The translations under genes were made by a program, and so were the position numbers. Shown one piece after another: positions 1,736 through 38,612 of a stretch of DNA of 64,000 bases; within the stretch, counting starts at the first letter, position 1; each line of letters starts with the position of its first letter. The DNA is from a virus. The stretch spans positions 128,001-192,000 of the IMG/VR virus record IMGVR_UViG_3300045988_119718. One strand, 5' to 3'. A model generated the notes under the pieces. That model was not told the DNA's origin, did no database searches, and saw only the letters and a program-made list of their open reading frames with translations.

Positions 1736-4573
1736 TCATTTTTTATTTTTATACTCTATCTCATAATGATCGAAATAGTAACCAGCTTTAGGCTTAGTTG
1801 AGATATTAGCTATTCTATTTCTGATAATAGAATACTTAGTATCAGATACTTTATCTACATTAGTTACGTCTATCTTAGCTTCATTAGCTTCAGAATTATC
1901 TATAGTAATATATACAACATCTGGAACAACTTTAGTAGCACCTATAGTAATATCCTCTGTAACTTGAATAGAAGATACTATATCATGCTTAACTCCATCT
2001 TTACCATAATAATACAAGCTACCAGCTATATAACCATCTTTAATAGATTTAACCGATACTCTGCAATATTTATTATAACCAATAGTAAATTTATTAATAC
2101 CTTTGCTATTAGTTCTAGGAATACCTTCAGCAGTAACTGTAATCAATTCATCTATGGTAGCTTCAATGGTAATATTATATCTTATATCAGTAATCTTAGT
2201 AGAATATATTATAGTATCTTCAGTTACATCTGCTTCAGTTATATTCAATACCCCTTTATTAAACCCTTCTGCAATATAAGTTATTTCAGCTCTTATATGA
2301 GGATATCTAGAGTTTACTACAAATGAGGCTGTATGCGATTCTTCTACACCATCCTTTAAATTATAGACAGTAATAATCTGATTTTGTACCTGATTAATAA
2401 TTACATTGTATTCTTTATAAGATGCAGGAGTAGCAGTTAAAGTAGTATTGCTAGTAATAACTGCTTTAGTAACACTAGGTGTACCTGGAGTATATTTATA
2501 CTTTCCATCTATAGCTTCAGTTCTTACTGTAATTAATGAATACTCAGGTACTTCAAAAGATTCAGTATAAGTTTTACCATTACATTCTACTATAATTCTC
2601 TGATTTGTGTATTTAGTTATATTTACTTTATAAATAGGGATATTAGAGTAGTCTATATCTAAAGAACGTTCTTTATGGGTTAGTATTAATCCATTATTTT
2701 CTTTTCTAATAAGTTCGTTTAATTCATTCATTCCATCAGTATCGAATTCAAAATAATGAGCATAGAAGTCATCTACATTATTGTTTGATAATATCATATC
2801 ATTCAAACCTTCATATTTAACATCTACGACTCTATTTATATTTAGATATGAATCTATAAACTTACTTACTATCTTTTCAGCGTTAATATTTACAGTACAA
2901 TTTAAATCCTTAGATATAATTCTTCTTTTATCTACAGTATAAAAGTCATATAAACTTTTATAACCTTTTGGAATTTTACTATCAAACTTAGATTCTCCAA
3001 AATTAAATGTGCCTGTTACTTTATTATTAAATACACCTTCATCGTGTATAAAGAAATATGGATATTGTATTTTACCATTATCATCTTTATTAAAATCAGA
3101 GAAGTCTATATTCTCTTTGGTGTACTTTAAATTTAGAGAAGCTAGTTTAATACCTTCTATATAAATATCCATAAGATTATTACCTAAATCTAAAGCTACT
3201 CCTATAGTATTCCCTTGTTCTGGAGATATAGAAGTTTCTACATTCTCTAGATAATGTAAATCGTTCTTATCAGAATTTTGCGTAGAATGTCTTACTAAAT
3301 GAAATAAATAAAATCCACCAGAATTATCCAATCCATTAGGAATAAAACAATTACCTCTATATAGATTTACTCTAATAGATTCAGTCATTATAGTATTAGG
3401 ATTAGTAACTTTTTCTTGACTAGGTTCACCTACTAAAGGAACACTAGTTATACCCATAGCAATAGGTATACCTACTATTCTATCCTTTAATTCCCCTTCT
3501 TTAACTGTATATTCAAAGTATACTTTATCTGTAGTAGGTATAGGATAATTTATATATACATTACCACCTACTTTATAAGAGTTCGTAATACCATACTTAT
3601 TATCTTCACCTGTTTCAAAATCATAATCAGCTTTGATATAAGTATTAGCATTCATATTATATTTATTACTTTTAGTAGTAATAAATTCTGGATCATCTGT
3701 TACTAAAGTTAAATTATCTGTATCTGGTTCTAATTCATTTTCTACAGATAATTCTCCATCCCATTGGATACTATAGGGGTTAAATATATCACCACTTATA
3801 TAAACATAGCATGGATTATCATCTGACCCTAATTCTGCATGTATTTCTTGGTCAGCCATACGTTCATAATATGCTTTATATAATGAATCATATCCTGGTA
3901 CTGGATGGGTTAATCCATTCTTACCAAAATTTACATATCCTGAAATATGTTTTAAATCATCCATAGAAGCTATTCTAAAATTATAATCTTCTTCTATATA
4001 TTTATAATTTATATTACTATATATACAAAAATACATATTAGGTTGTTCAGCTAAGTTAAATGGAGGTGTATATGAATAAAATGGTTTATCATATTCTCCA
4101 TCATAAGGATACTCATTGTTATAGTTTACAAACAGTTTAATTTTATTAGTATGATAATCTACTGCTACTCCTATAGTGTCTCCGATACCAGGTTTTCTTG
4201 TTCCTATAACACTATTACCATCAGCATCTATGCTGCTACCATCTATATACAGTACATTATCTGGTATTTCATTAGACAGTATTTCATATCTAGGGTCAGT
4301 TACATCATAGAATAAAGATGATATAGCATAATCTGCTATTAATACACCCAATGAAGGCTCTCTACTAATTCCTACATATAACGGAATGTGTTGTATTTTA
4401 TTTATAGGGTAATAATCAGTTATATTTATTTCAAACATTGTTTTATTTTTAATAGGGAGATTAGCTATTAAAAAGAATGGTTTATCATAATCAAAGTGTA
4501 ACCCATCACTAGATAAAACATTATCTAATGGAGAGCTATTTAAATCATATGACTTCATTAATATATTATTCAT
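1736..4573 (-). CDS. large virion/tail-associated structural protein with C-terminal Ig-like repeat(s) of the window-wide '…GYxAGSL…' family
   Basis: 945-aa ORF. The C-terminus carries 'KSIKDGYIAGSLYYYG' and 'KPKAGYYFDHYEI', resembling the repeat found in 11338..12444, 13686..14708, 35505..38612 and 38665..45945. Confidence 0.55.
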   Translation of the reverse strand: MNNILMKSYDLNSSPLDNVLSSDGLHFDYDKPFFLIANLPIKNKTMFEINITDYYPINKIQHIPLYVGISREPSLGVLIADYAISSLFYDVTDPRYEILSNEIPDNVLYIDGSSIDADGNSVIGTRKPGIGDTIGVAVDYHTNKIKLFVNYNNEYPYDGEYDKPFYSYTPPFNLAEQPNMYFCIYSNINYKYIEEDYNFRIASMDDLKHISGYVNFGKNGLTHPVPGYDSLYKAYYERMADQEIHAELGSDDNPCYVYISGDIFNPYSIQWDGELSVENELEPDTDNLTLVTDDPEFITTKSNKYNMNANTYIKADYDFETGEDNKYGITNSYKVGGNVYINYPIPTTDKVYFEYTVKEGELKDRIVGIPIAMGITSVPLVGEPSQEKVTNPNTIMTESIRVNLYRGNCFIPNGLDNSGGFYLFHLVRHSTQNSDKNDLHYLENVETSISPEQGNTIGVALDLGNNLMDIYIEGIKLASLNLKYTKENIDFSDFNKDDNGKIQYPYFFIHDEGVFNNKVTGTFNFGESKFDSKIPKGYKSLYDFYTVDKRRIISKDLNCTVNINAEKIVSKFIDSYLNINRVVDVKYEGLNDMILSNNNVDDFYAHYFEFDTDGMNELNELIRKENNGLILTHKERSLDIDYSNIPIYKVNITKYTNQRIIVECNGKTYTESFEVPEYSLITVRTEAIDGKYKYTPGTPSVTKAVITSNTTLTATPASYKEYNVIINQVQNQIITVYNLKDGVEESHTASFVVNSRYPHIRAEITYIAEGFNKGVLNITEADVTEDTIIYSTKITDIRYNITIEATIDELITVTAEGIPRTNSKGINKFTIGYNKYCRVSVKSIKDGYIAGSLYYYGKDGVKHDIVSSIQVTEDITIGATKVVPDVVYITIDNSEANEAKIDVTNVDKVSDTKYSIIRNRIANISTKPKAGYYFDHYEIEYKNKK

Positions 4574-4651: not shown

Positions 4652-5812
4652 TCATAAAGCTAAATTCTGATTACCTGATAAGAATCTTTTAGAATAGTAA
4701 TCTAAATTAAATTCTCTAGTATCTTTATCTAAATATTCTCTACTAATATACTTATCAAAACATTCTTTTTCAATATCATAGATGACTTTTCTAGATATAC
4801 ATTTATTGTATGAGTTAAATATGTATCTAGTTTCTAATGGGCATTCTGTGCAATATGAAACATGATTACACTGAATACATCTATCAATGTTTTCATTTAA
4901 AAGATTAGTATATAGATTAGTAAAATTAGACATTGATTTAGAATCAAACCCAGTAGAAATATTTCCTAGTACTAAATCATTATTATTATCTAATAATCCA
5001 TCTATTTCTTTTAAAAGTAAACATGGATAAATATCCCCATTAGGCACTACCATAAACATCTTTCCGATATATCTGCATTTATGGTCATAAATAAAATCAG
5101 GGTTTATAAATTTATTATAAATCATATATGTAAGATTATCCAAATCAAAATCATACTGATTATACAGCATATATATTTTATGCAGCTGATGTATAAAGAT
5201 AGTTTTAAACTCTTCAGTATTATAATATTTAGAGTATTCATCATTAAAAATAAAATAGTAAGATAACTTCTTACACCCTTGTTCTAGTGCATATTGAATA
5301 GAGTCAGCTAAATAACAAATATTGTCTTTAGTAACTGCTATAGCTATCATAACTTCATTATTATACTTAGAACAGCCTACTTTATCAACAATAGTAGACA
5401 ACTGTTTATCAGTAAGATGAGTTTGGGCTATTTCAGAAGCATGAATACCATCCCATGATATTTTAACTGATTCAGGAGAAATTATCTTTATTAAATCATT
5501 CATAATAAAGTTGTGATTAGTACCATTAGATACTATACCAATCTTAACTGTTGTATCTTTATATCGCTCAATCTTTTTTAACTCTTTGCATAGATTATAA
5601 AGCTCATTAGGATATATAGTTATCTCTCCCCCTAATAAGTTTATATATAACTTAGGGCCGATATTTAAGGTCTTTAAAAACTCTACCAGCTCTTTGCCTT
5701 TATTGAATACATTGTGCCTAGACCTAGAGTTATTAGTCTCAAAGCAATATTTACAATTCAAATTACAATAGTCATTAAATTTTATCCCTAAGAAATCAAT
5801 TTGCTCATACAT
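4652..5812 (-). CDS. radical SAM enzyme with C-terminal SPASM-type auxiliary Cys cluster (peptide-modifying maturase-like)
   Basis: N-terminal 'CNLNCKYC' (CxxxCxxC) and C-terminal 'CIQCNHVSYCTECP'. Overlaps the upstream gene by 8 nt. Confidence 0.8.
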   Translation of the reverse strand: MYEQIDFLGIKFNDYCNLNCKYCFETNNSRSRHNVFNKGKELVEFLKTLNIGPKLYINLLGGEITIYPNELYNLCKELKKIERYKDTTVKIGIVSNGTNHNFIMNDLIKIISPESVKISWDGIHASEIAQTHLTDKQLSTIVDKVGCSKYNNEVMIAIAVTKDNICYLADSIQYALEQGCKKLSYYFIFNDEYSKYYNTEEFKTIFIHQLHKIYMLYNQYDFDLDNLTYMIYNKFINPDFIYDHKCRYIGKMFMVVPNGDIYPCLLLKEIDGLLDNNNDLVLGNISTGFDSKSMSNFTNLYTNLLNENIDRCIQCNHVSYCTECPLETRYIFNSYNKCISRKVIYDIEKECFDKYISREYLDKDTREFNLDYYSKRFLSGNQNLAL

Positions 5813-6992
5813 TTTTCATACCTAATAGCTTAATAAAATTGCTTACTAATTCGGCTTCTTCATCATTTTTCTGTATTGCTTCTATATTATTAATTCTATT
5901 AAAAGTATAATTATCCATCTTAGTAGTGGAGATATCAGTAGATAATGCAAACTTCAAATCTTCTGGTGAAGTATTAATAATCTTACCATTTAAAATTTTT
6001 TCATTATTAATTGCAATAGTAGCATATTTTCTTAACAATACTGCATACTTAATAACTTTAGATCTATCATAATAAGATAATCCTCTAAGAAGAGTCGGCA
6101 TATTGGTAAGACCATCATTGAACAAGTCGATGATCTTGTTCAATAATTTTTTACAAGTTGTAATTCTTTCTGCTCTATTTGTATTACTGATAGAAAATAA
6201 TAAGTACATCAGCATAGTATCACAGAATCTGAGATAACCATAGTTATACTTCTTATATTGATAATCTCCTATTTCACTATATAAGAAATTATCAAGCTTA
6301 TTATACAAATCCTGAAGATCTATTTTAATTCTATTATCTTCTAAAAGTTGATTGATATTATGAATATAGAAGCATACCCAATCACAGAATTGGGAGTTAA
6401 TATTATCTTTATCACTAGAATACTCTAAAGTCTTATTATAATACTTTTTAATAGTATTCATGCATTTGGATGTAATATCTTCTTCTGACATAGAATTTGT
6501 AATAAAGTCTTTAGAGATACTGTCTATAAGAATCTTGTAAGCAATATAGTTATAATAAATAAATTTACTATAGTTTTTAGATTCATGAGATTCAAAATAT
6601 TTAATAAAGGTTTTCATATAAGAGAAATAAACATCTTTTTTATTAGAATCATTAAAATCTATAAATGCAATTAATAATGCTAAATAGTTTTCATCATCTA
6701 ATGCTTTAGTATTATGAATATATTCTTCTCCAATAAAATCTTTACTAATTATTTCAAATTCTTGAAGTAAAATTGGTTCATTTTTTAATGATTCTTCAAT
6801 AGAAGATTTAATATCAGAGTATACTTTCTTATTATCTTCATTTTCTATAAACAAAGAAGAATATTTAATATATTCTTCAAATGTAGTAAAAGAATTATAT
6901 TTATCAGATAGAGCGTTAAGTTTATCTATTACATCAGATACTTTATTCTCTAATATATAATTATAAATTCTTTCTGGTAAAAAATATATCAT
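5805..6992 (-). CDS. hypothetical alpha-helical protein inside the rSAM operon (candidate leader-binding, scaffold or peptidase partner)
   Basis: 395-aa ORF with RBS 'tggaggt'. Tightly packed between two rSAM genes. No motif recognised. Confidence 0.55.
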   Translation of the reverse strand: MIYFLPERIYNYILENKVSDVIDKLNALSDKYNSFTTFEEYIKYSSLFIENEDNKKVYSDIKSSIEESLKNEPILLQEFEIISKDFIGEEYIHNTKALDDENYLALLIAFIDFNDSNKKDVYFSYMKTFIKYFESHESKNYSKFIYYNYIAYKILIDSISKDFITNSMSEEDITSKCMNTIKKYYNKTLEYSSDKDNINSQFCDWVCFYIHNINQLLEDNRIKIDLQDLYNKLDNFLYSEIGDYQYKKYNYGYLRFCDTMLMYLLFSISNTNRAERITTCKKLLNKIIDLFNDGLTNMPTLLRGLSYYDRSKVIKYAVLLRKYATIAINNEKILNGKIINTSPEDLKFALSTDISTTKMDNYTFNRINNIEAIQKNDEEAELVSNFIKLLGMKNV

Positions 6993-6993
6993 A

Positions 6994-8028
6994 TTAAACC
7001 TCCATATCTACATTATTAACCTTATATAACCAATTCTTATATCGCATAATTATTTTATAAAGTTCTGCTAATTCTTCATGATTAAGACTTGCTAAATATT
7101 TAGTAATAAGATTATCATAAACTTTCATAAGTTTACATGTTTCTGGTAAATAATTATCTAACCATTTATCACCAAACTTTAGCATTCTTTCATATCTACA
7201 TCCACCATCGCAAAGGTAAAAATATTTACAATTTTCTATCTGACAATCTTTACTGGTACAACGCTTCTGTATTTTATCAAAGTCTTCATATTTCTGTTCA
7301 GTAAATGCGATAGAAGTGCATGATGACATAGTTTTATCTGTAAGATAAGACTGTTCTTTACCTGCTGCGCATGACTGCATTGGTGCTCTATTAATATATG
7401 CCATTATCTTATTAAGATTTTCTGTATATGGATGCTCTAATGTACCTTCAAAAGTACAATAAAGATTCTCTTCTAAATCTTTAAACCATTGATCGTCATG
7501 GTCTTCACCTCTAGCAATACAGTATTGACCATTAATATGAAACTCTTTATCTAATCTATGGAATAACTTATTAAGTCTAGGTATATCTTTTACATTAGCA
7601 TTATTAATTACAGTCTTAATATCAAAGTGGTCTAGTCCTTCAGATATAGCATAATTAATATTATTCAATACTCTATCGGCAATACTTCTACCAGAAGTAT
7701 CTACTCTAGAATCTTTAAATCCATCCCAAGAAATTTGTAATTCTATATGCCATTTCTTTTGGAACTTAATAAACTCTTTCCAATTAGCCATACTAGAAGT
7801 TATAACTTGAAAGTTCATTTGATCGTGATACTTTTCTAAGGTGTATTCCATTAAGTCTAATCTCATTAATGGTTCTCCACCAAAGAATACCACTCTATTT
7901 GGTTTATTTTGCTCTATACACTCATCTATATCTTTTTCTGTAAGACAATCATTATTATACTTGATATAACAATAATGGCATCTATTAGGACATTGATTGG
8001 TTAAAAATAAATATATTTCTTTATACAT
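6994..8028 (-). CDS. radical SAM/SPASM enzyme (likely true start MYKEIYLF…)
   Basis: 'CPNRCHYC' near the N-terminus and a SPASM-like 'CKYFYLCDGGCRYE' near the C-terminus. Its start overlaps the stop of the upstream precursor gene as TAATG. Confidence 0.8.
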   Translation of the reverse strand: MYKEIYLFLTNQCPNRCHYCYIKYNNDCLTEKDIDECIEQNKPNRVVFFGGEPLMRLDLMEYTLEKYHDQMNFQVITSSMANWKEFIKFQKKWHIELQISWDGFKDSRVDTSGRSIADRVLNNINYAISEGLDHFDIKTVINNANVKDIPRLNKLFHRLDKEFHINGQYCIARGEDHDDQWFKDLEENLYCTFEGTLEHPYTENLNKIMAYINRAPMQSCAAGKEQSYLTDKTMSSCTSIAFTEQKYEDFDKIQKRCTSKDCQIENCKYFYLCDGGCRYERMLKFGDKWLDNYLPETCKLMKVYDNLITKYLASLNHEELAELYKIIMRYKNWLYKVNNVDMEV

Positions 8029-8501
8029 TAGAATCCACCACCACATTTCTTATCATGACATGTACCACCATGGCATGATTGGCAAGATATTTGGCAAGTA
8101 GACTGACAAGATGCTTGACATACAAGTTTGCATGGGCCTGCCCAATAATCATCAGACTTAGAATTCATTTGCTGTAGTAAAAGTTTTGCTATATTATAAA
8201 TAATACCTATATCATTAGCTGTAATTATTTTTTGTTTTTGAACTTTATTGTTGATATCTTTTAATTGATTATAGTTTGCTGAAGTAGTTCTAGAAAGCTG
8301 TGTAATAGTTTTACTATAACCATTACCACCTTTTCTACTTATTTCGTTATCAGTAACAGCATTAATAGAATCTAATTCTGTAATATTTGTAAGCAAACAA
8401 TTTATCGTATTATTAAAGAAATCATTTGTAATGAAATGATCTTTAGCAGGAGAATCTGGTAAATAATATTTTACAGATTGTCTAATTACTTCTGTAGCCA
8501 T
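8028..8501 (-). CDS. Cys-rich precursor-like peptide B: ~127-aa leader plus 30-aa core LVCQASCQSTCQISCQSCHGGTCHDKKCGGGF
   Basis: Start MATEVIRQ… overlaps the stop of precursor A (TAATG). The C-terminal 30 aa are identical to precursor A and contain 8 Cys at 3-4 residue spacing. Confidence 0.6.
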   Translation of the reverse strand: MATEVIRQSVKYYLPDSPAKDHFITNDFFNNTINCLLTNITELDSINAVTDNEISRKGGNGYSKTITQLSRTTSANYNQLKDINNKVQKQKIITANDIGIIYNIAKLLLQQMNSKSDDYWAGPCKLVCQASCQSTCQISCQSCHGGTCHDKKCGGGF

Positions 8502-8911
8502 TAGAAACCACCCCCACATTTCTTATCATGACATGTACCACCATGGCATGATTGGCAAGATATTTGGCAAGTAGACTGACAAGATGCTTGACAGACTAAT
8601 CCACATGTACCATTGTTATTCCAATATTTCCAAGAATGTTCTTGCAATACATTGGAAATAGATTTACATAAATTATATATAGCTTTAGCATCATCTGCTT
8701 TAATAACATCACCTTGACTGATTAAGCTAATAATAGAATGAACAGTTTTAGGAACACCAATTCTAGAATATTCTATAATCTGTTTCTTTCTATATTCGTC
8801 TTTCTCTAATTCATCTATATTAGATAACATAGTCTCAATCATGTTATCATAAATAGTCTTACTAGAATTGACTAAATTATAGTGTATACCATTATTTACT
8901 ATCTTTTCCAT
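8501..8911 (-). CDS. Cys-rich precursor-like peptide A: ~106-aa leader plus the identical 30-aa core
   Basis: 136-aa ORF ending …NGTCGLVCQASCQSTCQISCQSCHGGTCHDKKCGGGF. Immediately downstream of an rSAM/SPASM gene, which it overlaps. Confidence 0.6.
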   Translation of the reverse strand: MEKIVNNGIHYNLVNSSKTIYDNMIETMLSNIDELEKDEYRKKQIIEYSRIGVPKTVHSIISLISQGDVIKADDAKAIYNLCKSISNVLQEHSWKYWNNNGTCGLVCQASCQSTCQISCQSCHGGTCHDKKCGGGF

Positions 8912-10265
8912 TATCTTCTACACCACCTTTATTATTCAATGAATATAAAATCATAGTCATAAGAATTTCAGATTTCTTTCTAAAGTATTCTTCAAATGTA
9001 GGGAATACATTATCAGAACCCAAATTATTAATCATTTCTTTAAGATGAATCAATCTAAGCTTTAATGCAAAAGTATTAGATAAATCCGCAGTATCCATAA
9101 TCATATCGATATACTTCTTAATCTCTAAATTAGTCTTAAGAATATTTAAGTATCTACTTCTAATATTAGTAGCATTAAGAATCTCAGCTTGCTTAATAAT
9201 AATTACATCGGTCATAATCTTATGAAGATCACAATAAGATTGTAAGACTTTATTCTCATCACCATTTTCTCTAAGGTTTTCTTCAGGGCAACCATTCTTA
9301 CAATTTCCTTTAGCTTTACAAGTTTCACATTCTTCTTTTTGATATACTGCTTGTTTTTCTTTTCTATCAGTATGGACTTTGGTTTCATCTACGTCAGTAT
9401 AGATATTACCAATCTTCTGTACTAATTTAATTTCATCCTTAGAAGTTGGTAATTGATGGCATGGATAGATATCCCCATTATAATCAATAGTACACCATTT
9501 ATTCAATCCAATAGGGCAAAGTAAATCATCAGATACTTCTGGTTCCATAACCTGTCTCATAAAGTCATCTATATTCTTAATAGCTATATTTCTCTTAGAA
9601 CCTTCTTCATTAAGTTTATCGACATACATATCCACTAATTCAATATAGTTTTCTTTATAGTCATTCAGTTGTTCTTCTGTCCACTCTACATCAGTTACTG
9701 GCATAGGACAAATAGAATCTATTCCTAAAGTATTTACTAAGTAATCTACACCATCATACATATACTTTGCATCTTCTGGTAAGATAGTCATTCTAGCTTC
9801 AATAAATACTTTCAATCCATTAGTAATAAGAATCTTTAAGTTCTTTACTACTTGATTCCATGAATTAGAACGGTTCTTATCATGAACATGTTTAATACCA
9901 TCAATAGATACTAATAAACCAATATTATTATCATCTACGTATTGAATGAAGTCTTTTGGCAAGAATGATAAGTTAGTAGTCATACCATAATCTACTAATC
10001 TATGATGCTTATTATTATCATCTATAACTGCTTTAATACATTCCCAATTCAATAATGGCTCTCCACCAAAGAAATTGACTTGGAACCTTCTATTAAAACC
10101 AGATAAATCATTATATGCCAGTCTCATAGCATCTACTGCTACTTCTGGCTTCATATATTTTTTATTTTTATCTTTTTCAAAACAATAGATACATTTAAAA
10201 TTACAATCATTAGTAATATCCAATGTGATAGAATCACAATCATAGACTTCTCTAAATGGTTTCAT
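8892..10265 (-). CDS. radical SAM/SPASM enzyme (probable start at the internal ATG MKPFREV…, strong RBS GGAGGA)
   Basis: 'CNFKCIYC' and a SPASM-like 'CETCKAKGNCKNGCPEE'. The track ORF extends to 10322, but the RBS 'ggaggaataatt-ATG' supports a start near 10265. Confidence 0.8.
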   Translation of the reverse strand: MKPFREVYDCDSITLDITNDCNFKCIYCFEKDKNKKYMKPEVAVDAMRLAYNDLSGFNRRFQVNFFGGEPLLNWECIKAVIDDNNKHHRLVDYGMTTNLSFLPKDFIQYVDDNNIGLLVSIDGIKHVHDKNRSNSWNQVVKNLKILITNGLKVFIEARMTILPEDAKYMYDGVDYLVNTLGIDSICPMPVTDVEWTEEQLNDYKENYIELVDMYVDKLNEEGSKRNIAIKNIDDFMRQVMEPEVSDDLLCPIGLNKWCTIDYNGDIYPCHQLPTSKDEIKLVQKIGNIYTDVDETKVHTDRKEKQAVYQKEECETCKAKGNCKNGCPEENLRENGDENKVLQSYCDLHKIMTDVIIIKQAEILNATNIRSRYLNILKTNLEIKKYIDMIMDTADLSNTFALKLRLIHLKEMINNLGSDNVFPTFEEYFRKKSEILMTMILYSLNNKGGVEDNGKDSK

Positions 10266-10350
10266 AATTATTCCTCCTAAAAAATAAATTATTATAATGT
10301 AAAAAAGATTATTAGTAGCCATATAAACGGCTACTAATATTTTCTACTAA

Positions 10351-23393: not shown

Positions 23394-24773
23394 TTATTTA
23401 CCATCGAAGTCTGCTGCCATAGTTGCAAGAATCTGTAAAGGCATACCCATTGTGTAGTCATCATTAATAGCTACACATTGTACTGCCAGAATAGAACCAT
23501 AATTAATTGTAGGATTACGATTAATCAATACATTAATACCAGAAGTATCGATGATATTTTGAATAATATCTCTAATACGTTTATCCTCTTTCAGTAATCC
23601 TTGCTTATATCTCATATATGCTGTATTATATGAAATATTATAAGTTCTTACTAAAATATTAATTACAGTCTGTTGAAGTAATTCCAATAATGTAAAATAA
23701 GATAATGTAACCTGATCTACTCTAAGTTTAGGGTCGGGAACAATAACTGATCTAGATGTAAATCCACATCTACCACCAATCAGTCTTTTAATAACACCAT
23801 TCTTATCTTTGCAGATATTAATTACTTCAGTATACAGCTCCAGATATCTCTGTTGAAGATTCCACAATAGTACATTTCTATGTTTTGGAATTCTGTAAAT
23901 AGACAATGTGTCATCATTAATCTTAGCTGCTAACTTAGCCATCATATTATAGATACCATTGGTTTTTTCATATGTAAATCTACCATCTCTTCTATCAAAT
24001 GGTCTAAGAGCTGTAGAATACACTGGAATACTATGAATAAAGATTTTATCTCTATTCTCTAAGATATCTTGATAATAATCAGGTTTCTTATTTTTATTCT
24101 TCTTATGAAAATATTCTAGGATTTCATCAAATCTATGATAAAATTCAATCAATCCAATTCCTTTATACTTTTCATCTAACTTAGTCTTTCTAGTAGACCT
24201 CTTAGCTGTAGATTTAATAATTTTAGAAGAATACTTTTGTACTGGTTTACCATTTTCATCGAGATCAATAATTGGTTCTACAATAGAAGCAAACTGATCT
24301 TTACCAATATAGCTTTCCAATACATAGAATAAATTCGGATGAATAATTGGATATCCTTCTTTAAGAGTAATCCAACCAGTCATCTCAAAATCTTCACCTA
24401 CATAGATTACTCTGGAATGACAATATGGGCAGATCATTCCTTCATAATTCTTCCCTTGTGTTCTTTTGCATTTACAAGAATATCTATCTGTAAATGCATC
24501 AGGGTCTTGCATAGTTTTTGTAAACTTGGATGAGAAAATAGAATTATCGCTTTTTAATCCTACATCAATAGCTTTCTTATCATCCTCAGGTTCATCAATA
24601 ATAAACCCTTTTCCCGATATCAGGTCTTTTGCTTTCTCTTCATCTAGATTTAATCGTAACAACCTAGTTTGGAAAGTAAACTTCTTTGATACTGGATAAT
24701 TAACGGTTAAGTTTAATTCCATATTACTCTCCTTCTCTTTAAAAACAAATAAAAAAGAATGAGTCAAGCTCAT
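23394..24773 (-). CDS. rpoC: RNAP beta-prime N-terminal fragment, exon 1 (Zn finger to catalytic AADFDG)
   Basis: 'CKCKRTQGKNYEGMICPYCHSRV' (Zn ribbon), 'LRPFDRRDGRF', 'INRNPTINYGSILAVQ…AADFDG' then an in-frame stop because of the intron. Confidence 0.8.
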   Translation of the reverse strand: MSLTHSFLFVFKEKESNMELNLTVNYPVSKKFTFQTRLLRLNLDEEKAKDLISGKGFIIDEPEDDKKAIDVGLKSDNSIFSSKFTKTMQDPDAFTDRYSCKCKRTQGKNYEGMICPYCHSRVIYVGEDFEMTGWITLKEGYPIIHPNLFYVLESYIGKDQFASIVEPIIDLDENGKPVQKYSSKIIKSTAKRSTRKTKLDEKYKGIGLIEFYHRFDEILEYFHKKNKNKKPDYYQDILENRDKIFIHSIPVYSTALRPFDRRDGRFTYEKTNGIYNMMAKLAAKINDDTLSIYRIPKHRNVLLWNLQQRYLELYTEVINICKDKNGVIKRLIGGRCGFTSRSVIVPDPKLRVDQVTLSYFTLLELLQQTVINILVRTYNISYNTAYMRYKQGLLKEDKRIRDIIQNIIDTSGINVLINRNPTINYGSILAVQCVAINDDYTMGMPLQILATMAADFDGK

Positions 24774-26755: not shown

Positions 26756-28012
26756 TCACTTCTTTAATCCGAATGCTTTCCATACATCTATTTCATGAAG
26801 TTTAACTGTAGAGTCATGGAATGCCTTTAATGCTTTAAGCTTTAATGCTGATGCTACTTGTGGCATAGCAACACCAATATCTTTAAATCCCGCTCTATAG
26901 AATAGATTTCCTGCACATACATTACAAATCTTATTAGGTTCTTTATATTCACATAAAGAAGAGAATCTCATTCTAACTGTTTTACCTAAATATTTATCTT
27001 TATTAGTAGAATTCAATTCTATAAGTTTATTTCCTTCTACTATATAAGAATACATCATAAGTTTAATATTATACTTATCTAATGTAATTTCTATAGTTCT
27101 CTTAGTACCACAATCAGTTCCTTTAGGAGCTAAAGTAAGATGCTGAAATGCTCTTAATAATAGTTTTTCATTGTACCCGCCTTCAGGGGTCTTCTTAGAT
27201 CTAGAATATGGGCCAGCTGCTAATGCTTTAGCTAATTTAGAATAATCATCTCTAGAAATACCATCAATGTAACTTGACATAGCTACGTCATAACCCTTAG
27301 TAGGGTCTGGGTCTTTAATAGCACCTTTCATTACAAAGATATTTTTAAAGTTATTAGCAAAAGAACCTTTAGCTTTGGAATCATACATATCCATAGATAT
27401 ATCATCTTTAAGTTCTTTTTTAGCATAGTCTAATAATTCTTTTTCTATCTTATCCGCAGCATACATATTTCTTTCTGGATCTGCTAATTCATCTGCATAT
27501 TTCTTTTCTAATTGTTTTTTCATTTTATCAATCTTATAAGAAATAGTAAGCATGTTTGTAGTAAATCCAGAGCATAGTATATTACAATAAGGCTGGAATT
27601 TCTGCTGTCTCATTAAATATCTTTTTAATGCAGACAATGGTAATCTATCTTCCATAATAGCATATGAAATCTGATCATTCATATCGCCTAATACATCTTT
27701 ATTTATAGGCTTATTGATATAATGGAATAAATCAAATAAGTCTTGTTCTATAAAACACTTATTGAACCACCATCTACCTAAAGTAGTAGTAAAAGTATTT
27801 TTATTCTTCTTATTACCAATACCATAAGAATTAGGTGGAATAGTAATAATATCATATGTATTATACTTTGGTGCTTTACCATTTAAAGTACCAAAAGTTT
27901 CCATAAGTTTAGAAAGAGATTCTACATCTTTTTGAGATAAATTTAAAAAATAATCTACTTCATCTTTGTTTGTAATCTTTCTAGCAACACGTTTGTTAGT
28001 AGATACTGCCAT
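26756..28012 (-). CDS. rpoC: RNAP beta-prime fragment containing the bridge helix and the start of the trigger loop
   Basis: 'KTPEGGYNEKLLLRAFQHLTLAPKGTDCGT' matches '[28 protein letters not shown]'. 'CNVCAGNLFYRAGFKDIGVAMPQVASAL' matches '[30 protein letters not shown]'. Confidence 0.75.
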   Translation of the reverse strand: MAVSTNKRVARKITNKDEVDYFLNLSQKDVESLSKLMETFGTLNGKAPKYNTYDIITIPPNSYGIGNKKNKNTFTTTLGRWWFNKCFIEQDLFDLFHYINKPINKDVLGDMNDQISYAIMEDRLPLSALKRYLMRQQKFQPYCNILCSGFTTNMLTISYKIDKMKKQLEKKYADELADPERNMYAADKIEKELLDYAKKELKDDISMDMYDSKAKGSFANNFKNIFVMKGAIKDPDPTKGYDVAMSSYIDGISRDDYSKLAKALAAGPYSRSKKTPEGGYNEKLLLRAFQHLTLAPKGTDCGTKRTIEITLDKYNIKLMMYSYIVEGNKLIELNSTNKDKYLGKTVRMRFSSLCEYKEPNKICNVCAGNLFYRAGFKDIGVAMPQVASALKLKALKAFHDSTVKLHEIDVWKAFGLKK

Positions 28013-28015
28013 TTA

Positions 28016-29068
28016 TTAGCTCACCACCTTTTTATATATTCTACCTTTATAAACATTAGAGGCAACTATACCATTTAATCTATTTTTTATATTGCCTCTA
28101 TCTTTTTCAACATAATTATTAGCTCTAAGATATTTATTTAACCCTCTATATTTTCCTATAAATTCATTAGTGGCTTCGTCATATACTTCAAATTCAAGAT
28201 TATACCTTCTATTATTAGATTGCTCTTCTTGTGTTGCCCATGTACAATTTTCAGGAGAATAGTCTTTATTTACATCTATTCTATCCATAGTTGTATTTAT
28301 TAATCCATGTTTATCAGCAAATTCTTTAAAAGAGTTCCAATTATCTAAAAAATAATTATGGAAATCATGCCATCTATCACAAACTTTTATACCTCTCCCG
28401 CCATATAACTTGTAACGATTATTAGATGGATTATAACGTTGCATCATACCTCTCCATCTTTTATAAAAAGCTCTATATGAAGGATCAGTTCTATCCTCGA
28501 TTTCGTTGTAAATTAAATGAGAATATTCATCATGCTTAGTTCCATGCCTTTTACAAAAATTACTGTAATATATTTCTTTTGTATATCCGCAAATTTTACA
28601 TTTAGCTAAAAATCTAGGCATATTATTTTTATATCCTAAAAATTTAATTAATACCATATCTTCAATAGTTTCTCCGACTTTTTCTTTATAATAATCTTCT
28701 TCACAATTTAGCCTATTGTGAAAATAATTATATTTTATAAAATTACTTTTTAATACTTTTTTTATATGCCCACATTTAGTGCATTGAATATTGCAGTATT
28801 GCTCATTACGATCTGTATACTCATCTAAAAGCTCTTTAAACTTATAATCAGTTCTAACTACATTTTTCAAAAAATCTTCATTGCAAGTATCTAGCGAATG
28901 CTTATAATGATATAACGTAATACTCTGCTTTGTTATATGTTTAATATGACCGCATTTAGTGCATTGAATAGTATAAACAGGGGCATAATGTTTATTTCTT
29001 CCATCATACGATATAATTTGGTAATCACCGATTATTTCTCCGACTAAATCTGAATAATTAGTTTTCAT
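28016..29068 (-). CDS. free-standing HNH-family homing endonuclease-like protein (three Zn-ribbon modules plus a C-terminal 'IDVNKDYSPENCTWATQEEQSNN' block)
   Basis: Three repeats of 'CTKCGHIK…SNF'. The C-terminal block is typical of phage HNH/AP2-type homing endonucleases. Strong RBS 'aaaaggag'. Immediately adjacent to the intron-like element. Confidence 0.55.
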   Translation of the reverse strand: MKTNYSDLVGEIIGDYQIISYDGRNKHYAPVYTIQCTKCGHIKHITKQSITLYHYKHSLDTCNEDFLKNVVRTDYKFKELLDEYTDRNEQYCNIQCTKCGHIKKVLKSNFIKYNYFHNRLNCEEDYYKEKVGETIEDMVLIKFLGYKNNMPRFLAKCKICGYTKEIYYSNFCKRHGTKHDEYSHLIYNEIEDRTDPSYRAFYKRWRGMMQRYNPSNNRYKLYGGRGIKVCDRWHDFHNYFLDNWNSFKEFADKHGLINTTMDRIDVNKDYSPENCTWATQEEQSNNRRYNLEFEVYDEATNEFIGKYRGLNKYLRANNYVEKDRGNIKNRLNGIVASNVYKGRIYKKVVS

Positions 29069-34664: not shown

Positions 34665-35489
34665 TTATTTTTTCTCTTTTTCTAAATATTCTTTTACTTT
34701 ATCATAGTAATAGTCTTTATTTAAAAATGCTTTCTTAAATTCTTCTAAAGACCCAAATAGTTCTTGTAAATCTCTTCTGTTATCATATAAGTATTTTATC
34801 AAGTTCATATGTCTATCATAAAGTTTAGGATAATGCTGTTTTATTTTTTCTAAGTTTTCAGCAGTATTATATTGAATTGGACATATTAAGCAAGATCTAG
34901 TGAATCCTAAAGTATCATAATCTTTATTAAGCTTTATATTATTTTCCTTAATATACTCATAGCAGTCTTCATCTGTCCAATTAAATATAGGAGAAATTAT
35001 TTTTTTATTTCCTTCTTTTATGGTAATTGCAGATTTAACCCAAGTCTTAGTATTGTATAAATCGTCTTTTCTAACACCAGTGAAAAATATATCATATTTT
35101 TTTAATACTTTTGTTGTTGTTTGCCGTTTATATGAGCAGCAAGATAATAAAAATTTACTATTTATAATATTATTATCTTTGTATAATTTTTTGATATAAG
35201 AAGATAAAGCAAAACATTTATTTTCTTTCATATACTTTTCAGCATCTATACCAATAATAGTTACATCAGGTCTAGATTTAAGATAATCTAATATACCATC
35301 ATCTTCAAACCCAGTAGCAATATAATATTGATAAATAAAATCTCTTACTTTTAATTCTTTTAATAAATTATCGACGATTACACTATCTTTACCACAAGAA
35401 AATAGAAAACATGCATTATCGTCTTTAGAGTAATTATCTAAAATTATTTGTTTAGATTCTTTTATTTTTTCTTCTAGTTGATTAGTCAT
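34665..35489 (-). CDS. PAPS-reductase-family (PP-loop ATP pyrophosphatase) protein
   Basis: PP-loop 'FLFSCGKDS' (SGGxDS-like). Confidence 0.55.
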   Translation of the reverse strand: MTNQLEEKIKESKQIILDNYSKDDNACFLFSCGKDSVIVDNLLKELKVRDFIYQYYIATGFEDDGILDYLKSRPDVTIIGIDAEKYMKENKCFALSSYIKKLYKDNNIINSKFLLSCCSYKRQTTTKVLKKYDIFFTGVRKDDLYNTKTWVKSAITIKEGNKKIISPIFNWTDEDCYEYIKENNIKLNKDYDTLGFTRSCLICPIQYNTAENLEKIKQHYPKLYDRHMNLIKYLYDNRRDLQELFGSLEEFKKAFLNKDYYYDKVKEYLEKEKK

Positions 35490-35504: not shown

Positions 35505-38500
35505 TTATGTAATATTTTCTGTACCCGATGTTCCGGCATCTTTACCGCCGCCAAGGATATACCATGAAGCAACTACATTAGCAACTTTAACTGTTATGTC
35601 TTCGGTTAAAGTGTATGTAATATCAGATGTTGCATAGAAATACTTTACACTTTTATCTAAATTAGTAATAGTACATGGGATTTTAGTATCATTTATATAC
35701 ATATCGATAGTTTCAATACTGTCATATCCATTATCATCAGTTGGGGTTAATTTAAATCGTACTCTATATAATCTCCCATAACCCCATTTACTAGTTTGAT
35801 ATTCACTCTTATCAATTAATACATATAATGCAGCATCTGTATTGGTTAATTGAATTACATTTATAGTATATAAAATACCATCAGCAGATCCAGCATATAC
35901 TTCATCGTCTGATAATAGTATACCACTAGTTTTATTTAAAGTACCGGCATTATAACCTACATCAGGTTTAATACCTGCTGTCCATTTAGTACCATAATCT
36001 AATTTAACTGAAGAGGTATAAATTTTACCATTAGCCATTACAGCGATAGTTTGATGCTCAGACTGAGTAATAGTTAAAGTGAATTGCTTTATAGTAGCAG
36101 CTGTAGCACTAATACTGTCATTACCTGTTAAAGTACCACTAGTTTTATTTAAAGTACCAGCATTATAGCCTTCTGCTGGTTCTATAGCTACAGTATAAGT
36201 AGTTCCATATGGTAAAGCTACAGTATTGGTATATTTATTACCATTAGCTGTAACAGTAATAGTCTGATGCTCAGATTGAGCTATTGTAAGAGTACATTCA
36301 ATCTTCTTAGCTGCTGATTGAGCATAGATATATGTATCGCTAGTTAAAGTACCACTAGGTAAGTTTACCTCTCCAGCAGTGTATCCTGTTACACCTTCTG
36401 TATATGCTACCCATGTAGAACCATATGGGAAAGATTTAGTACCAGTTGTCCAAGTAATAACATGATTAATATCATCTGGATAAGTACATGTTACTGTAGT
36501 TATAGTATTTTCTGTCTGTTTTATAATTATTCTATAATTGATCTTATTAGCAGCACTAGTAGCATATACCGAATCATCTCCAGTTATAGTACCACTAGCC
36601 TTATTTAAAGTACCAGCGGTATAACCAGTATCTGCTGTAATAGTAGCAGTCCATTTAGTCCCATATGGCAAAGATACACTATTAGTATAAGTTTTACCAT
36701 TAGCATGAACTATGATAGTCTGATGTTCAGATTGAGTAATAGTTAAAGTAAATTGCTTTATAGTAGCAGGACTAGCACTTATAGAATCATTGCCAGTTAT
36801 AGTGTCACTAGTTTTAGACAAAGTACCAGCAGTATAACCAGTATCTGCTGTAATAGTAGCAGTCCATTTAGTCCCATATGGCAAAGATACACTATTAGTA
36901 TAAGTTTTACCATTAGCATGAACTGTGATAGTTTGATGATTACTTTGGTTAATACTAAGAATATAACCATAAGCTGTAGCATTAGTAGCTGAAATAGTAT
37001 GGTTACTATTGATATCGTTTATTTCAAAAGAATTATATAGTTTACCATCAAGTGTTATATATCCGCTTTTATATCCAATAGATGGAGTTATCTTTATATC
37101 GAGAGAATCTCCTTCTGTAGTCTCAAATGTGCTGGTATAATTTTGGTTATTTAATCTTGAATATACGGTAATAGTCTGATTGCTGGTCTGATTAATAGTA
37201 ATAGTATATTTCTTTTTAGCTATATATGTAGCTTCTGTAGCAAATATTGTATAATCCTGACTAATGTTATTAATAGAAGTATAATTCAATTTACCTGCTG
37301 CATAATTAGAATTAGTAGATACAATAGTACAAGTTATACTATCTCCTGACTCTACTTTAAAGCTATTAGTATATATAATACCATTATGGTATACTCTTAT
37401 TATTTGATTTTCTGATTGTTGTATAGTAATAGTATGGGTTCTTAAAGACGGTGGAACTATACCATTTTTATCATGTACATAATCATAGCTATTTTTATCA
37501 TCTATATCTTTAAATCCAGATTTAGTAGTACCAGCAAATGGTAAATAATATAAATCTTCCTTATTATTATGATCAAGATTAACTAATAAATGCGGTTCTG
37601 TAAGATACCAATCGTCATCATCATAGTCTGACAACGGTGTTATTTCCTTATTACCATCTAAATATTGTAAATAAAATACACCATCATTTATCTTATGTGC
37701 TGGTGTTATCTTGATTTCACTATCTTCTTTTAAGATAAAACTTCTTTTTATAGGAATATTAGAATCTATATCCACTGGTGGATATATCAATCTTCCTGGT
37801 ACATAAGTATTATCTTTAGGTGTAATAGTTATTCTGTATTCTGTAAGATAATCTAAACTTACAGCACTAGTATAAGTAGTTCCATTAGCTATTACTCTAA
37901 CGGCTTCATTATCCATTGTAGGTATAGTTATTTTATATTTCTTTTTAGTAGCATTAGTGCAAGTTATATTTAAACTAAAATCATTACTATTAACTAACGT
38001 ATTAGAGGCATTTAGCTTATACATAGTTAATTCAGTATGGTTAGAAGTGCCTTTATTATACCCATATATAGGATTGATTTCTATGCTGTATTCAGTATCA
38101 TAAGTAACATAAAAAGATTTACTTTTATTACCAGATTTCTGTATCGTATACATAGAATAAAAAGTTAAAGTTTGATTAATAGTAGCCGGTAAAGTAATTT
38201 TACACATCTTAGGTTCTGCATCTTTATCTACAGACAAATGTTTATTCTTATACATTATACCACTAGTAGAATTTAATGCTCCTTTGATGGTATAACCAGT
38301 ATCTGCTACTATTTCAGCATCAAATCTATCACCTATCTTACATTTAATGATTCTAGTATTTTCGTATACAGTTTCATTATTTATAGTAACTTTAATATGC
38401 TGATGATTATATTGATCTATTAATATATATAATGCATTGTTTATACTTTCACTAGCATATATAGAAATATCACTTTCTAGTATTCCATGTTCTTTATTTA

Positions 38501-38612
38501 ATCGACCTGATATATAGCCTTCATCTGCTTCTATAGAAGCAGACCATTCTGTCTTATTAGGTCGCTTTTGTGAGGAAGTATATTTTGAATGATCGCTCAT
38601 TTTACCCTCCAT
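35505..38612 (-). CDS. large tail-fibre-like protein with at least 8 tandem Ig-like repeats
   Basis: Repeats such as 'ITQSEHQTIIVHANGKTYTNSVSLPYGTKWTATITADTGYTAGTL'. Two copies are nearly identical at the nucleotide level (~36580-36960). Confidence 0.65.
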   Translation of the reverse strand: MEGKMSDHSKYTSSQKRPNKTEWSASIEADEGYISGRLNKEHGILESDISIYASESINNALYILIDQYNHQHIKVTINNETVYENTRIIKCKIGDRFDAEIVADTGYTIKGALNSTSGIMYKNKHLSVDKDAEPKMCKITLPATINQTLTFYSMYTIQKSGNKSKSFYVTYDTEYSIEINPIYGYNKGTSNHTELTMYKLNASNTLVNSNDFSLNITCTNATKKKYKITIPTMDNEAVRVIANGTTYTSAVSLDYLTEYRITITPKDNTYVPGRLIYPPVDIDSNIPIKRSFILKEDSEIKITPAHKINDGVFYLQYLDGNKEITPLSDYDDDDWYLTEPHLLVNLDHNNKEDLYYLPFAGTTKSGFKDIDDKNSYDYVHDKNGIVPPSLRTHTITIQQSENQIIRVYHNGIIYTNSFKVESGDSITCTIVSTNSNYAAGKLNYTSINNISQDYTIFATEATYIAKKKYTITINQTSNQTITVYSRLNNQNYTSTFETTEGDSLDIKITPSIGYKSGYITLDGKLYNSFEINDINSNHTISATNATAYGYILSINQSNHQTITVHANGKTYTNSVSLPYGTKWTATITADTGYTAGTLSKTSDTITGNDSISASPATIKQFTLTITQSEHQTIIVHANGKTYTNSVSLPYGTKWTATITADTGYTAGTLNKASGTITGDDSVYATSAANKINYRIIIKQTENTITTVTCTYPDDINHVITWTTGTKSFPYGSTWVAYTEGVTGYTAGEVNLPSGTLTSDTYIYAQSAAKKIECTLTIAQSEHQTITVTANGNKYTNTVALPYGTTYTVAIEPAEGYNAGTLNKTSGTLTGNDSISATAATIKQFTLTITQSEHQTIAVMANGKIYTSSVKLDYGTKWTAGIKPDVGYNAGTLNKTSGILLSDDEVYAGSADGILYTINVIQLTNTDAALYVLIDKSEYQTSKWGYGRLYRVRFKLTPTDDNGYDSIETIDMYINDTKIPCTITNLDKSVKYFYATSDITYTLTEDITVKVANVVASWYILGGGKDAGTSGTENIT

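Follow-up and report, generated by a model that had tools for sequence, protein, structure and literature searches.

The IMG/VR virus record IMGVR_UViG_3300045988_119718 carries, within its positions 128,001 to 192,000, a compact operon of six genes encoding three radical S-adenosylmethionine (rSAM) enzymes, two cysteine-rich putative substrates and one protein of 395 residues. We call this stretch of 64,000 nucleotides the window and count positions from its first letter; all results are computational. All six genes lie on the minus strand. In the direction of reading, the operon starts with rSAM3 (8892..10265, 457 residues, a predicted SPASM radical-SAM enzyme) and continues with substrate A (precursor A, 8501..8911, 136 residues), which consists of an N-terminal module, a pre-core helix and an eight-Cys tail (8504..8605, CGLVCQASCQSTCQISCQSCHGGTCHDKKCGGGF). 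Substrate B (precursor B, 8028..8501, 157 residues counted from MATEV) is a paralog that has diverged from A and ends in the same tail (8031..8132, CKLVCQASCQSTCQISCQSCHGGTCHDKKCGGGF). It is followed by rSAM2 (6994..8028, a radical-SAM enzyme of 344 residues), by the gene for the 395-residue protein (5805..6992), a member of a predicted all-helical family at the core of the cassette and a proposed scaffold or chaperone, and by rSAM1 (4652..5812, a radical-SAM enzyme of 386 residues).

The genes are tightly packed. The start of A overlaps the end of rSAM3 by 20 nt in the open reading frame (ORF) list of the window, the A/B and B/rSAM2 junctions both read TAATG, a gap of 1 nt separates the rSAM2 stop from the start of the 395-residue gene, and the latter overlaps rSAM1 by 8 nt. 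The six-gene order and the tight junctions had been described in an earlier note, which was made from the letters of this DNA without database searches, and the ORF list bears them out. A terminator-like hairpin on the minus strand (10310..10339, 13 pairs and a T-run) lies between the upstream Amidase_2 gene and rSAM3 and marks the upstream boundary of the operon. The longest ORF of rSAM3 extends to 10322; we place its start at 10265 because the hairpin (10339-10310) overlaps the 5' extension of that ORF and because the orthologs in six related loci have 457 residues. The whole six-gene operon was also found in six independent related loci. A sigma-70 promoter scan gave matches not above shuffled expectation and was uninformative.

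All three enzymes carry CxxxCxxC near the N-terminus and auxiliary cysteines at the C-terminus, and all three pass the Pfam model PF04055 (cutoff 29.5 bits), with 54.6 bits for rSAM3, 49.7 for rSAM2 and 36.8 for rSAM1. Among the NCBIfam models, rSAM3 is matched best by PapB (208.5 bits, alignment 3-329 of 330), followed by QhpD (141.2 bits) and the SCIFF maturase (130.9 bits), with further matches to the nif11-type maturase and the CXXX-repeat maturase (99.3 bits). rSAM1 matches PapB at 78.3 bits and the CXXX-repeat maturase at 57 bits, and rSAM2 the nif11-type maturase at 51.8 bits and PapB at 49.6 bits. The curated cutoffs are 340 bits for PapB (NF047865), 425 for the SCIFF maturase (TIGR03974), 453 for QhpD (TIGR03906) and 350 for TIGR04115; because every score is below its cutoff, none of the three enzymes belongs to those families. 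rSAM1 and rSAM2 also match viperin and MoaA weakly, and for rSAM2 these scores are only about 8-15 bits under its top two, both of which are peptide maturases. The kinship with peptide-modifying rSAM enzymes that the earlier note had proposed is supported by the best matches, which are PapB, QhpD, SCIFF, CXXX-repeat and nif11-type maturases together with CteB. A grouping with cofactor or nucleoside rSAM enzymes, the case which that note had raised against its own proposal, was not what the NCBIfam and Protein Data Bank (PDB) matches returned.

SPASM domains bind two auxiliary 4Fe-4S clusters through seven C-terminal Cys. The claim that each enzyme combines CxxxCxxC with a SPASM-like cluster holds at the level of motifs in all three, but the hidden Markov model (HMM) scores fall just short (Pfam SPASM PF13186, 18.3 and 20.2 against a cutoff of 21.5; TIGR04085, 25.8 against 27). 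As these scores are under cutoff, the SPASM assignment of rSAM3 is based on its conserved cysteines and on its alignment to CteB up to residue 444. CteB (5WGG) is the closest solved structure to rSAM3 by sequence (E = 1e-26), and since the alignment covers CteB residues 98-444, rSAM3 would consist of a radical-SAM core and a SPASM domain, with no counterpart of CteB residues ~1-97, which we take to be an RRE domain. At its C-terminus, rSAM3 has about 100 extra residues relative to CteB. rSAM1 and rSAM2 have no sequence match in the PDB. All three enzymes begin about 15-25 residues ahead of CxxxCxxC, and an N-terminal domain would not fit there.

In ortholog sets at 26-44% identity (n = 56, 49 and 34), CxxxCxxC is kept in 93-100% of members, and the conserved auxiliary cysteines number 7 in rSAM3, 7-8 in rSAM2 and 5-6 in rSAM1, in which the set may be reduced. 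Because both CxxxCxxC and the auxiliary cysteines are conserved across orthologs, the three enzymes are predicted to be distinct, maintained and probably active. Judged by sequence, rSAM2 is the best-conserved enzyme of the cassette and rSAM3 the one nearest to known thioether synthases; rSAM1 also matches phrog_1802. These comparisons support the assignment of all three as SPASM-type radical-SAM proteins that resemble thioether-forming peptide maturases.

The last 31 residues of A and B are identical and hold eight Cys, in agreement with the identical Cys-rich core first noticed in the letters, and the eight-Cys module can be written as C[G/K]LVCQASCQSTCQISCQSCHGGTCHDKKCGGGF. IMG/VR was scanned with a back-translated C-Q-x-x-C-Q-x-x-C-Q-x-x-C-Q-x-C pattern, which gave at least 119 stretches, so that the loci described here are selected by the tail motif. 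With low-complexity artefacts removed, at least about 80 IMG/VR loci encode proteins of roughly 136-607 residues that end, at the very C-terminus, in a homologous module, on contigs of 8-255 kb, many of them from human samples; ORFs in the cross-locus scripts were taken from stop to stop and their lengths are approximate. An exhaustive HMM search of 1.84 billion representatives returned 133 tail clusters, 100 of them at E ≤ 1e-10, with proteins of 71-950 residues and no SCIFF-sized member (about 45 residues). The canonical eight-Cys members (n = 87) have a median length of 233 residues, and the tail lies 1-5 residues from the C-terminus in 86 of them.

Across these proteins the tail has the form [W/F/Y][W/F/Y]-D-x-N-G-x-C-x3-(C-Q-x-x)3-C-Q-x-C-x4-C-H-[N/D]-Q-x-C-G-x(1-4)-COOH. 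The eight Cys were imposed by the search pattern and are conserved by definition, but the other tail residues were not imposed. Gln after Cys 2, 3, 4 and 5 is kept at 95, 98, 86 and 97%, respectively, and the end of the tail retains His after Cys 7 (100%), [N/D] (94%, replaced by A or V in about 4% of members), Gln (96%) and Gly after Cys 8 (98%). The substrates are built from four elements, namely an N-terminal module of ~60 residues, an insert that varies from roughly 0 to 450 residues or beyond, a pre-core helix that is amphipathic and ends in an aromatic pair followed by D-x-N-G, and the tail. No cleavage motif such as GG is evident ahead of the first Cys, where the preceding residues read W/F-D-x-N-G-x. 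Of the precursor families initially suggested for the substrates, only weak matches under cutoff were recovered (SCIFF, 14.8 bits; CXXX-repeat, 18.2 bits for substrate B; cutoff 50 each), and A and B have no NHLP or Nif11 match in Pfam or NCBIfam. Neither window substrate has a PHROG match. A relative of 605 residues has a Gly_rich_2 domain and minor-tail PHROG matches, and two others have weak F5/8-type-C matches below cutoff; domain matches of these kinds (minor-tail glycine-rich, F5/8-type-C), all weak, occur in 3 of the 18 longer members scanned. An AlphaFold2 model of substrate A had a predicted local distance difference test (pLDDT) score of 46, was unusable and was discarded, and helical propensity alone was used.

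The tail loci share more than the tail, and parts of the cassette turn up again across dozens of divergent viral contigs. Orthologs of the cassette enzymes were detected with phmmer at E = 1e-60 to 1e-133 for rSAM3, 1e-80 to 1e-90 for rSAM2 and 1e-34 to 1e-65 for rSAM1, and there are three to six rSAM genes per cassette. Among the matches listed, 53 tail ORFs have 1.5 kb or more of sequence ahead of them, and in 49 of these an rSAM3 ortholog lies ≤600 nt upstream; of the other four, three are low-complexity repeats and one is the second gene of a tandem substrate pair. The operon is neither a one-off nor the owner of a private core; it belongs to a conserved cassette, with a tail that ends proteins of up to 950 residues.

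The 395-residue family was found in at least 68 loci after two HMM iterations, often as two copies per cassette. The window protein has no Pfam or NCBIfam match, and its predicted model (pLDDT 62) is all-alpha without beta-sheet. An RRE is a winged helix with a beta-sheet, and the all-alpha model is therefore unlike an RRE; it is unlike a peptidase, too. The RRE or peptidase features that the earlier note had considered for this protein are thus absent from what is predicted to be an all-helical fold, and no RRE or other leader-recognition domain was found in the three enzymes either. From its fold class and its constant presence in the cassette, the protein is a probable scaffold or chaperone.

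Variants of the cassette were seen at several loci. In L024, a protein of 407 residues (L024:652-1872) has roughly 25 consecutive C-Q-x-x repeats followed by the standard C-H-N-Q-N-C-G-G-W-S ending, which suggests that the cross-link unit, if there is one, is local to the four-residue repeat; this cassette is interrupted by two HNH_3 homing-endonuclease genes (L024:2001-3685). Some cassettes have a second class of proteins of ~400 residues with the N-module of the substrates and a C-x-x-C-[E/D]-N-[K/R]-COOH ending (L102:4340-5545 and L102:5558-6679, L013:2513-3718, L050:2105-3322), and in L013 the gene lies directly downstream of an extra rSAM3-like gene. This ending contains a PapB-like C-x3-[E/D], and the proteins probably represent a second substrate type; the window carries no such protein. 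L016 and L094 have a variant cassette (for example, L016:3675-10617) with six CxxxCxxC genes in a row. Its substrate tail continues after C-Q-x-C with D-x-x-Q-C-A-D-Y-C… and further Cys, and a neighbouring protein of 190 residues ends in …W-A-C-H-C-N-C-N-H-S-S-G-G-W-K.

The two substrate copies in the window record how the tail evolves. The leaders of A and B, described at first as unrelated, are 26% identical over 93 residues with the core removed (E = 1e-4) and share the N-terminal module with the wider family. DNA identity between the paralogs is 46-53% in leaders and 81-94% in cores. In the window, the tail DNA of A and B agrees at 94 of 96 positions over the final 96 nt including the stop, and at 94 of 102 over the 34-codon module. 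The A and B cores of L005 encode an identical peptide with 19 of 102 nt different, which argues for purifying selection on the exact tail peptide. The window B core is identical to the L005 B core at 102 of 102 nt. In the A cores, window and L005 differ at 11 nt despite 98% identity of leader A, and the window A core is now B-like. A B-like A core next to a nearly unchanged leader A indicates that, in the window lineage, the A tail was recently overwritten from the B tail by gene conversion. Compared with L001, nucleotide identity is 77-78% in the cores and 89-93% in the leaders, and both cores carry the same substitutions. Because the cores are less conserved than the leaders and their substitutions are common to both, the variable tail positions evolve fast and in concert.

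A stricter tail pattern applied to one genome per species from 185,579 bacterial and archaeal species gave three matches only, all on contigs of metagenome-assembled genomes (MAGs). In all three contigs the gene directly upstream of the tail gene is an rSAM3 ortholog, and GC is 25-34%; the 395-residue family is also present in L126, and rSAM1-like and rSAM2-like matches in L128. L128 (CASEYV010000001.1, 283,511 bp, labelled 'uncultured bacterium', with the cassette at 25% GC) is probably a jumbo phage genome, complete or nearly so, that was placed in a bacterial bin. L126 (Solobacterium MAG) and L127 (Bacilli MAG, roe-deer rumen) are short cassette contigs that give weak host hints. The three MAG contigs are most simply explained as binned phage contigs. 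A recent acquisition of a bacterial cluster for a peptide that is ribosomally made and modified after translation (RiPP) was considered and rejected as the leading explanation, given three MAG contigs in 185,579 species, all with the phage cassette. Among deposited phages, no relative was found by megablast of the operon or by tblastn of a 199-residue substrate or of rSAM2, and rSAM3 has matches there at ≤28% identity only. On present evidence, the cassette is restricted to uncultivated phages or phage-like sequences. A word-indexed search with a 75-residue profile of the Cys-rich tail scored 260 candidates, returned 10 fragments and missed the window precursors, and is insensitive for such queries. 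No prior description of the cassette was found in the searchable literature (PMC11118758 included), the coverage of which is incomplete and hence no proof of absence.

The operon lies in a baseplate, fibre and lysin module of a jumbo phage with its own RNA polymerase (RNAP) subunits, and the earlier note was right to place it between lysin and tail-fibre genes of a phage that encodes its own RNAP. Near it are an Amidase_2 lysin, a BspA-type leucine-rich repeat/DUF285 protein, a Gp10_C baseplate protein and tail-fibre PHROG matches, and the flanks of some divergent cassettes give weak fibre and tail matches. Contigs of 230-268 kb from human gut metagenomes, Hadza and Nepal samples among them, carry close relatives of the operon. 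The GC content stands at about 28%.

By sequence, the phage system would work most like the PapB, CteB and QhpD thioether systems, yet it fails their family thresholds. The PapB/PapA (freyrasin) system, NF047865, provides the best NCBIfam match of rSAM3 and rSAM1 and the second best of rSAM2. PapB forms several Cys thioethers in a four-residue-spaced repeat motif, can dispense with a leader, acts at C-termini and joins Cys to the carbon alpha to the carboxylate of Asp or Glu (PMC12373016, PMC12715619). It has an RRE, of which a delta-RRE construct has been described (PMC12715619), whereas in the phage enzymes the stretch ahead of the radical-SAM core is too short for one. The motifs of PapA are C-x3-D/E, but the window tail has C-Q-x-x repeats with no C-x3-[D/E] and no acidic acceptor, and the single enzyme of the PapB system contrasts with the three to six enzymes and protein-sized substrates of the phage cassette. 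For CteB and SCIFF (TIGR03974/TIGR03973), the scores stay under the thresholds (maturase 130.9 against 425 bits, precursor 14.8 against 50 bits), and SCIFF precursors are bacterial, about 45 residues long and served by a single enzyme, unlike the phage substrates of 71-950 residues with eight Cys and several enzymes. The SCIFF core, reportedly …C-x-x-C-Q-T-S-C-Q-S-A-C-K-T-S-C…, resembles the C-Q-x-x-C run of the phage tail, and the substrates give weak SCIFF HMM matches.

QhpD/QhpC (TIGR03906) is the second-best match for rSAM3, at 141.2 bits and under the cutoff of 453. QhpD is a SPASM rSAM enzyme that installs several Cys thioethers in a subunit retained in a functional assembly and not in a released peptide, and it is a conceptual precedent for modifying a protein that stays in its assembly; however, the QhpC acceptors are Asp and Glu, the QhpC substrate family is different and there are no Qhp genes in the phage window. 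The CXXX-repeat system (TIGR04115/TIGR04117) has the Cys-x3 repeat periodicity in common with the phage tail, but the scores are far under the cutoffs of 350 and 50, and this bacterial, uncharacterised system is without the invariant Gln, the C-H-[ND]-Q-x-C-G end, the N-module and the helical partner protein. NxxcB is said to form a Cys-to-Asn beta-thioether. By motif alone, the [N/D]-Q-x-C end of the phage tail is N-x-x-C-like and can be likened to the NxxC ranthipeptides, a family named in PMC11851443. There are five departures from PapB, CteB and QhpD, namely the number of enzymes, the lack of an N-terminal RRE-type domain, the partner protein, the size and motif of the substrates, and the restriction to phages.

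On balance, and by analogy with these maturases, we lean with modest confidence towards the operon being one copy of a conserved phage cassette whose enzymes would put thioether-type cross-links on tails that stay on probable baseplate or fibre proteins. We infer that the tail is the substrate of the enzymes. rSAM3, rSAM2 and rSAM1 would act non-redundantly on the C-terminal module of phage proteins of varied size, abstracting hydrogen from acceptor residues and joining these to Cys thiols as thioethers, as PapB, QhpD and CteB do. As acceptors, the most plausible would be the [N/D]-x-x-C site and the four conserved Gln, which would react at the carbon adjacent to their carboxamide. Gln is proposed in part because NxxcB reportedly acts at Asn. 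The proposal also draws on the action of PapB at Asp and Glu (PMC12373016). The product would be a compact ladder resistant to reduction and proteases, and the conservation of three enzyme clades suggests cross-links of three classes or at three positions. Because there is no counterpart of CteB 1-97 and the enzymes start 15-25 residues before CxxxCxxC, the substrate would probably be presented by the pre-core helix, the N-module and the 395-residue protein. The modified tail would remain on its protein, one associated with baseplate or fibre, as a rigid C-terminal knob and would probably not be cut off and exported. Gut, oral and rumen hosts fit the need of rSAM chemistry for an anaerobic cytoplasm. 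The distance of 1-5 residues between the tail and the free C-terminus recalls the leader-independent C-terminal chemistry of PapB, and thioethers are a natural disulfide substitute in reducing environments (PMC12373016). A more specific proposal, which we hold only tentatively, is that phages of anaerobes use a thioether ladder, possibly of a new Cys-to-Gln type, to staple virion fibre or baseplate proteins at their C-terminal tips, as a redox-insensitive replacement for disulfides.

Several points weigh against cross-linked tails on virion proteins. Both the modification and its type are deduced from computation alone, and because the HMM matches are under the family cutoffs, the chemistry could instead be epimerisation, C-C or ether links, or formylglycine-type oxidation; we know of no precedent for Cys-to-Gln thioethers. 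Virion association is deduced from the neighbourhood and from weak domain matches in relatives, and the next gene after one divergent cassette encodes a DNA ligase instead. The model of substrate A reaches a pLDDT of only 46, the scaffold role of the 395-residue protein is a guess from a model of moderate confidence (pLDDT 62), and the co-occurrence of tail and enzymes was counted on loci selected by the tail motif, among the matches listed. The window substrates (136 and 157 residues) have no binding domain and could be classical long-leader precursors. In that case, which we judge fairly unlikely, a modified core of ~32 residues would be cleaved from A and B and released at lysis as an antimicrobial, signalling (ranthipeptide-like quorum signal) or anti-defence peptide. 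Such a RiPP would account for short proteins with an N-terminal "leader" and a C-terminal Cys-rich core, for the weak SCIFF and CXXX-repeat target matches and for core positions other than Cys and Gln that change faster than the leaders between the window and L001, which is typical of RiPPs, and with two precursors for one core the dose of product would rise. However, the tail also ends proteins of up to 950 residues, a few with weak domain matches, which would be extravagant leaders; none of the 133 clusters is of SCIFF-like size (about 45 residues), and the residues before the first Cys hold no conserved cleavage motif such as GG. A scan of the window operon and of ten further unlabelled cassette ORFs from five divergent cassettes found no peptidase or exporter domain, which makes a leader-cleaved, released peptide less likely, although a host or distal protease for leader removal is possible. 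Of the two products that the earlier note had offered, the released antimicrobial or signalling peptide has accordingly lost ground, and the cross-linked, virion-associated product is the better reading.

The eight Cys and the invariant His within about 32 residues also resemble a metal site, and with the modification of the tail being deduced, the tail could bind a metal or an Fe-S cluster (as a zinc knuckle or cluster carrier) while the rSAM enzymes use the tail proteins as partners or act elsewhere. We consider this improbable, given the strict adjacency to maturases like PapB, CteB and QhpD, whose known substrates are Cys-rich peptides, and a regular C-Q-x-x period, up to roughly 25 repeats in L024, that is unlike known metal sites; the three to six rSAM genes per cassette would, moreover, have no other evident substrate. 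More improbable still, to the point that we give it very little weight, is a non-protein substrate, with the enzymes serving DNA or nucleotide hypermodification or a cofactor and the Cys-tailed proteins being mere neighbours. Jumbo phages often encode rSAM enzymes for nucleotide chemistry, and rSAM1 and rSAM2 have their weak viperin and MoaA matches, but the top NCBIfam families are peptide maturases (for rSAM3 and rSAM1, and the top two for rSAM2), rSAM3 and rSAM2 conserve all of the SPASM cysteines, the order of rSAM3 then substrate is essentially invariant and the genes are translationally coupled.

If the tails are cross-linked, RiPP-type radical chemistry would reach full-size viral proteins and phages would own a multi-enzyme hardening system. 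Were the tips of virion proteins in fact stapled, this RiPP-type, enzyme-installed cross-link would be the first in viral structural proteins, and it would define a new protein-appended class, ranthipeptide- or sactipeptide-like, in which a helical scaffold protein replaces the RRE. For phage biology, it suggests a way for the virions of strict-anaerobe phages to keep exposed tips stable in places where disulfides cannot last. For rSAM enzymology, the gain would be three new enzyme clades that combine protein-sized substrates with a C-Q-x-x repeat and lack an N-terminal RRE-type domain. Such clades would be attractive for leader-independent protein stapling, for which PapB is being engineered (PMC12373016, PMC12715619). 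The tail motif together with an rSAM3 ortholog also offers a compact signature for poorly known gut and oral jumbo phages.

Other genes of the window complete the picture of the phage. Directly downstream of rSAM1 lies a gene for a protein of 945 residues (1736-4573, minus strand), which is conserved within the close clade, gives no match in Pfam or PHROG and is not in the cassette of divergent phages. Two similar motifs in the protein (…NFG(K/E)…P.GY.SLY…) bring SPRY-type domains to mind, and repeated beta-rich segments come after them. Split multisubunit RNAP beta-like subunits (phrog_2987, phrog_2962) are encoded in the window by two minus-strand genes at 23394-24773 and 26756-28012, the second of which is adjoined by an HNH endonuclease gene (28016-29068, minus strand); split genes of this type are typical of phiKZ/AR9-like jumbo phages. 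Two giant minus-strand ORFs encode 2426 residues (38665-45945), with no PHROG or Pfam match, and 1035 residues (35505-38612), with a marginal Pfam match only, to a pullulanase all-beta domain. The window also holds a PAPS-reductase-like gene (34665-35489) and a thymidylate-synthase-like domain (58578-59939).

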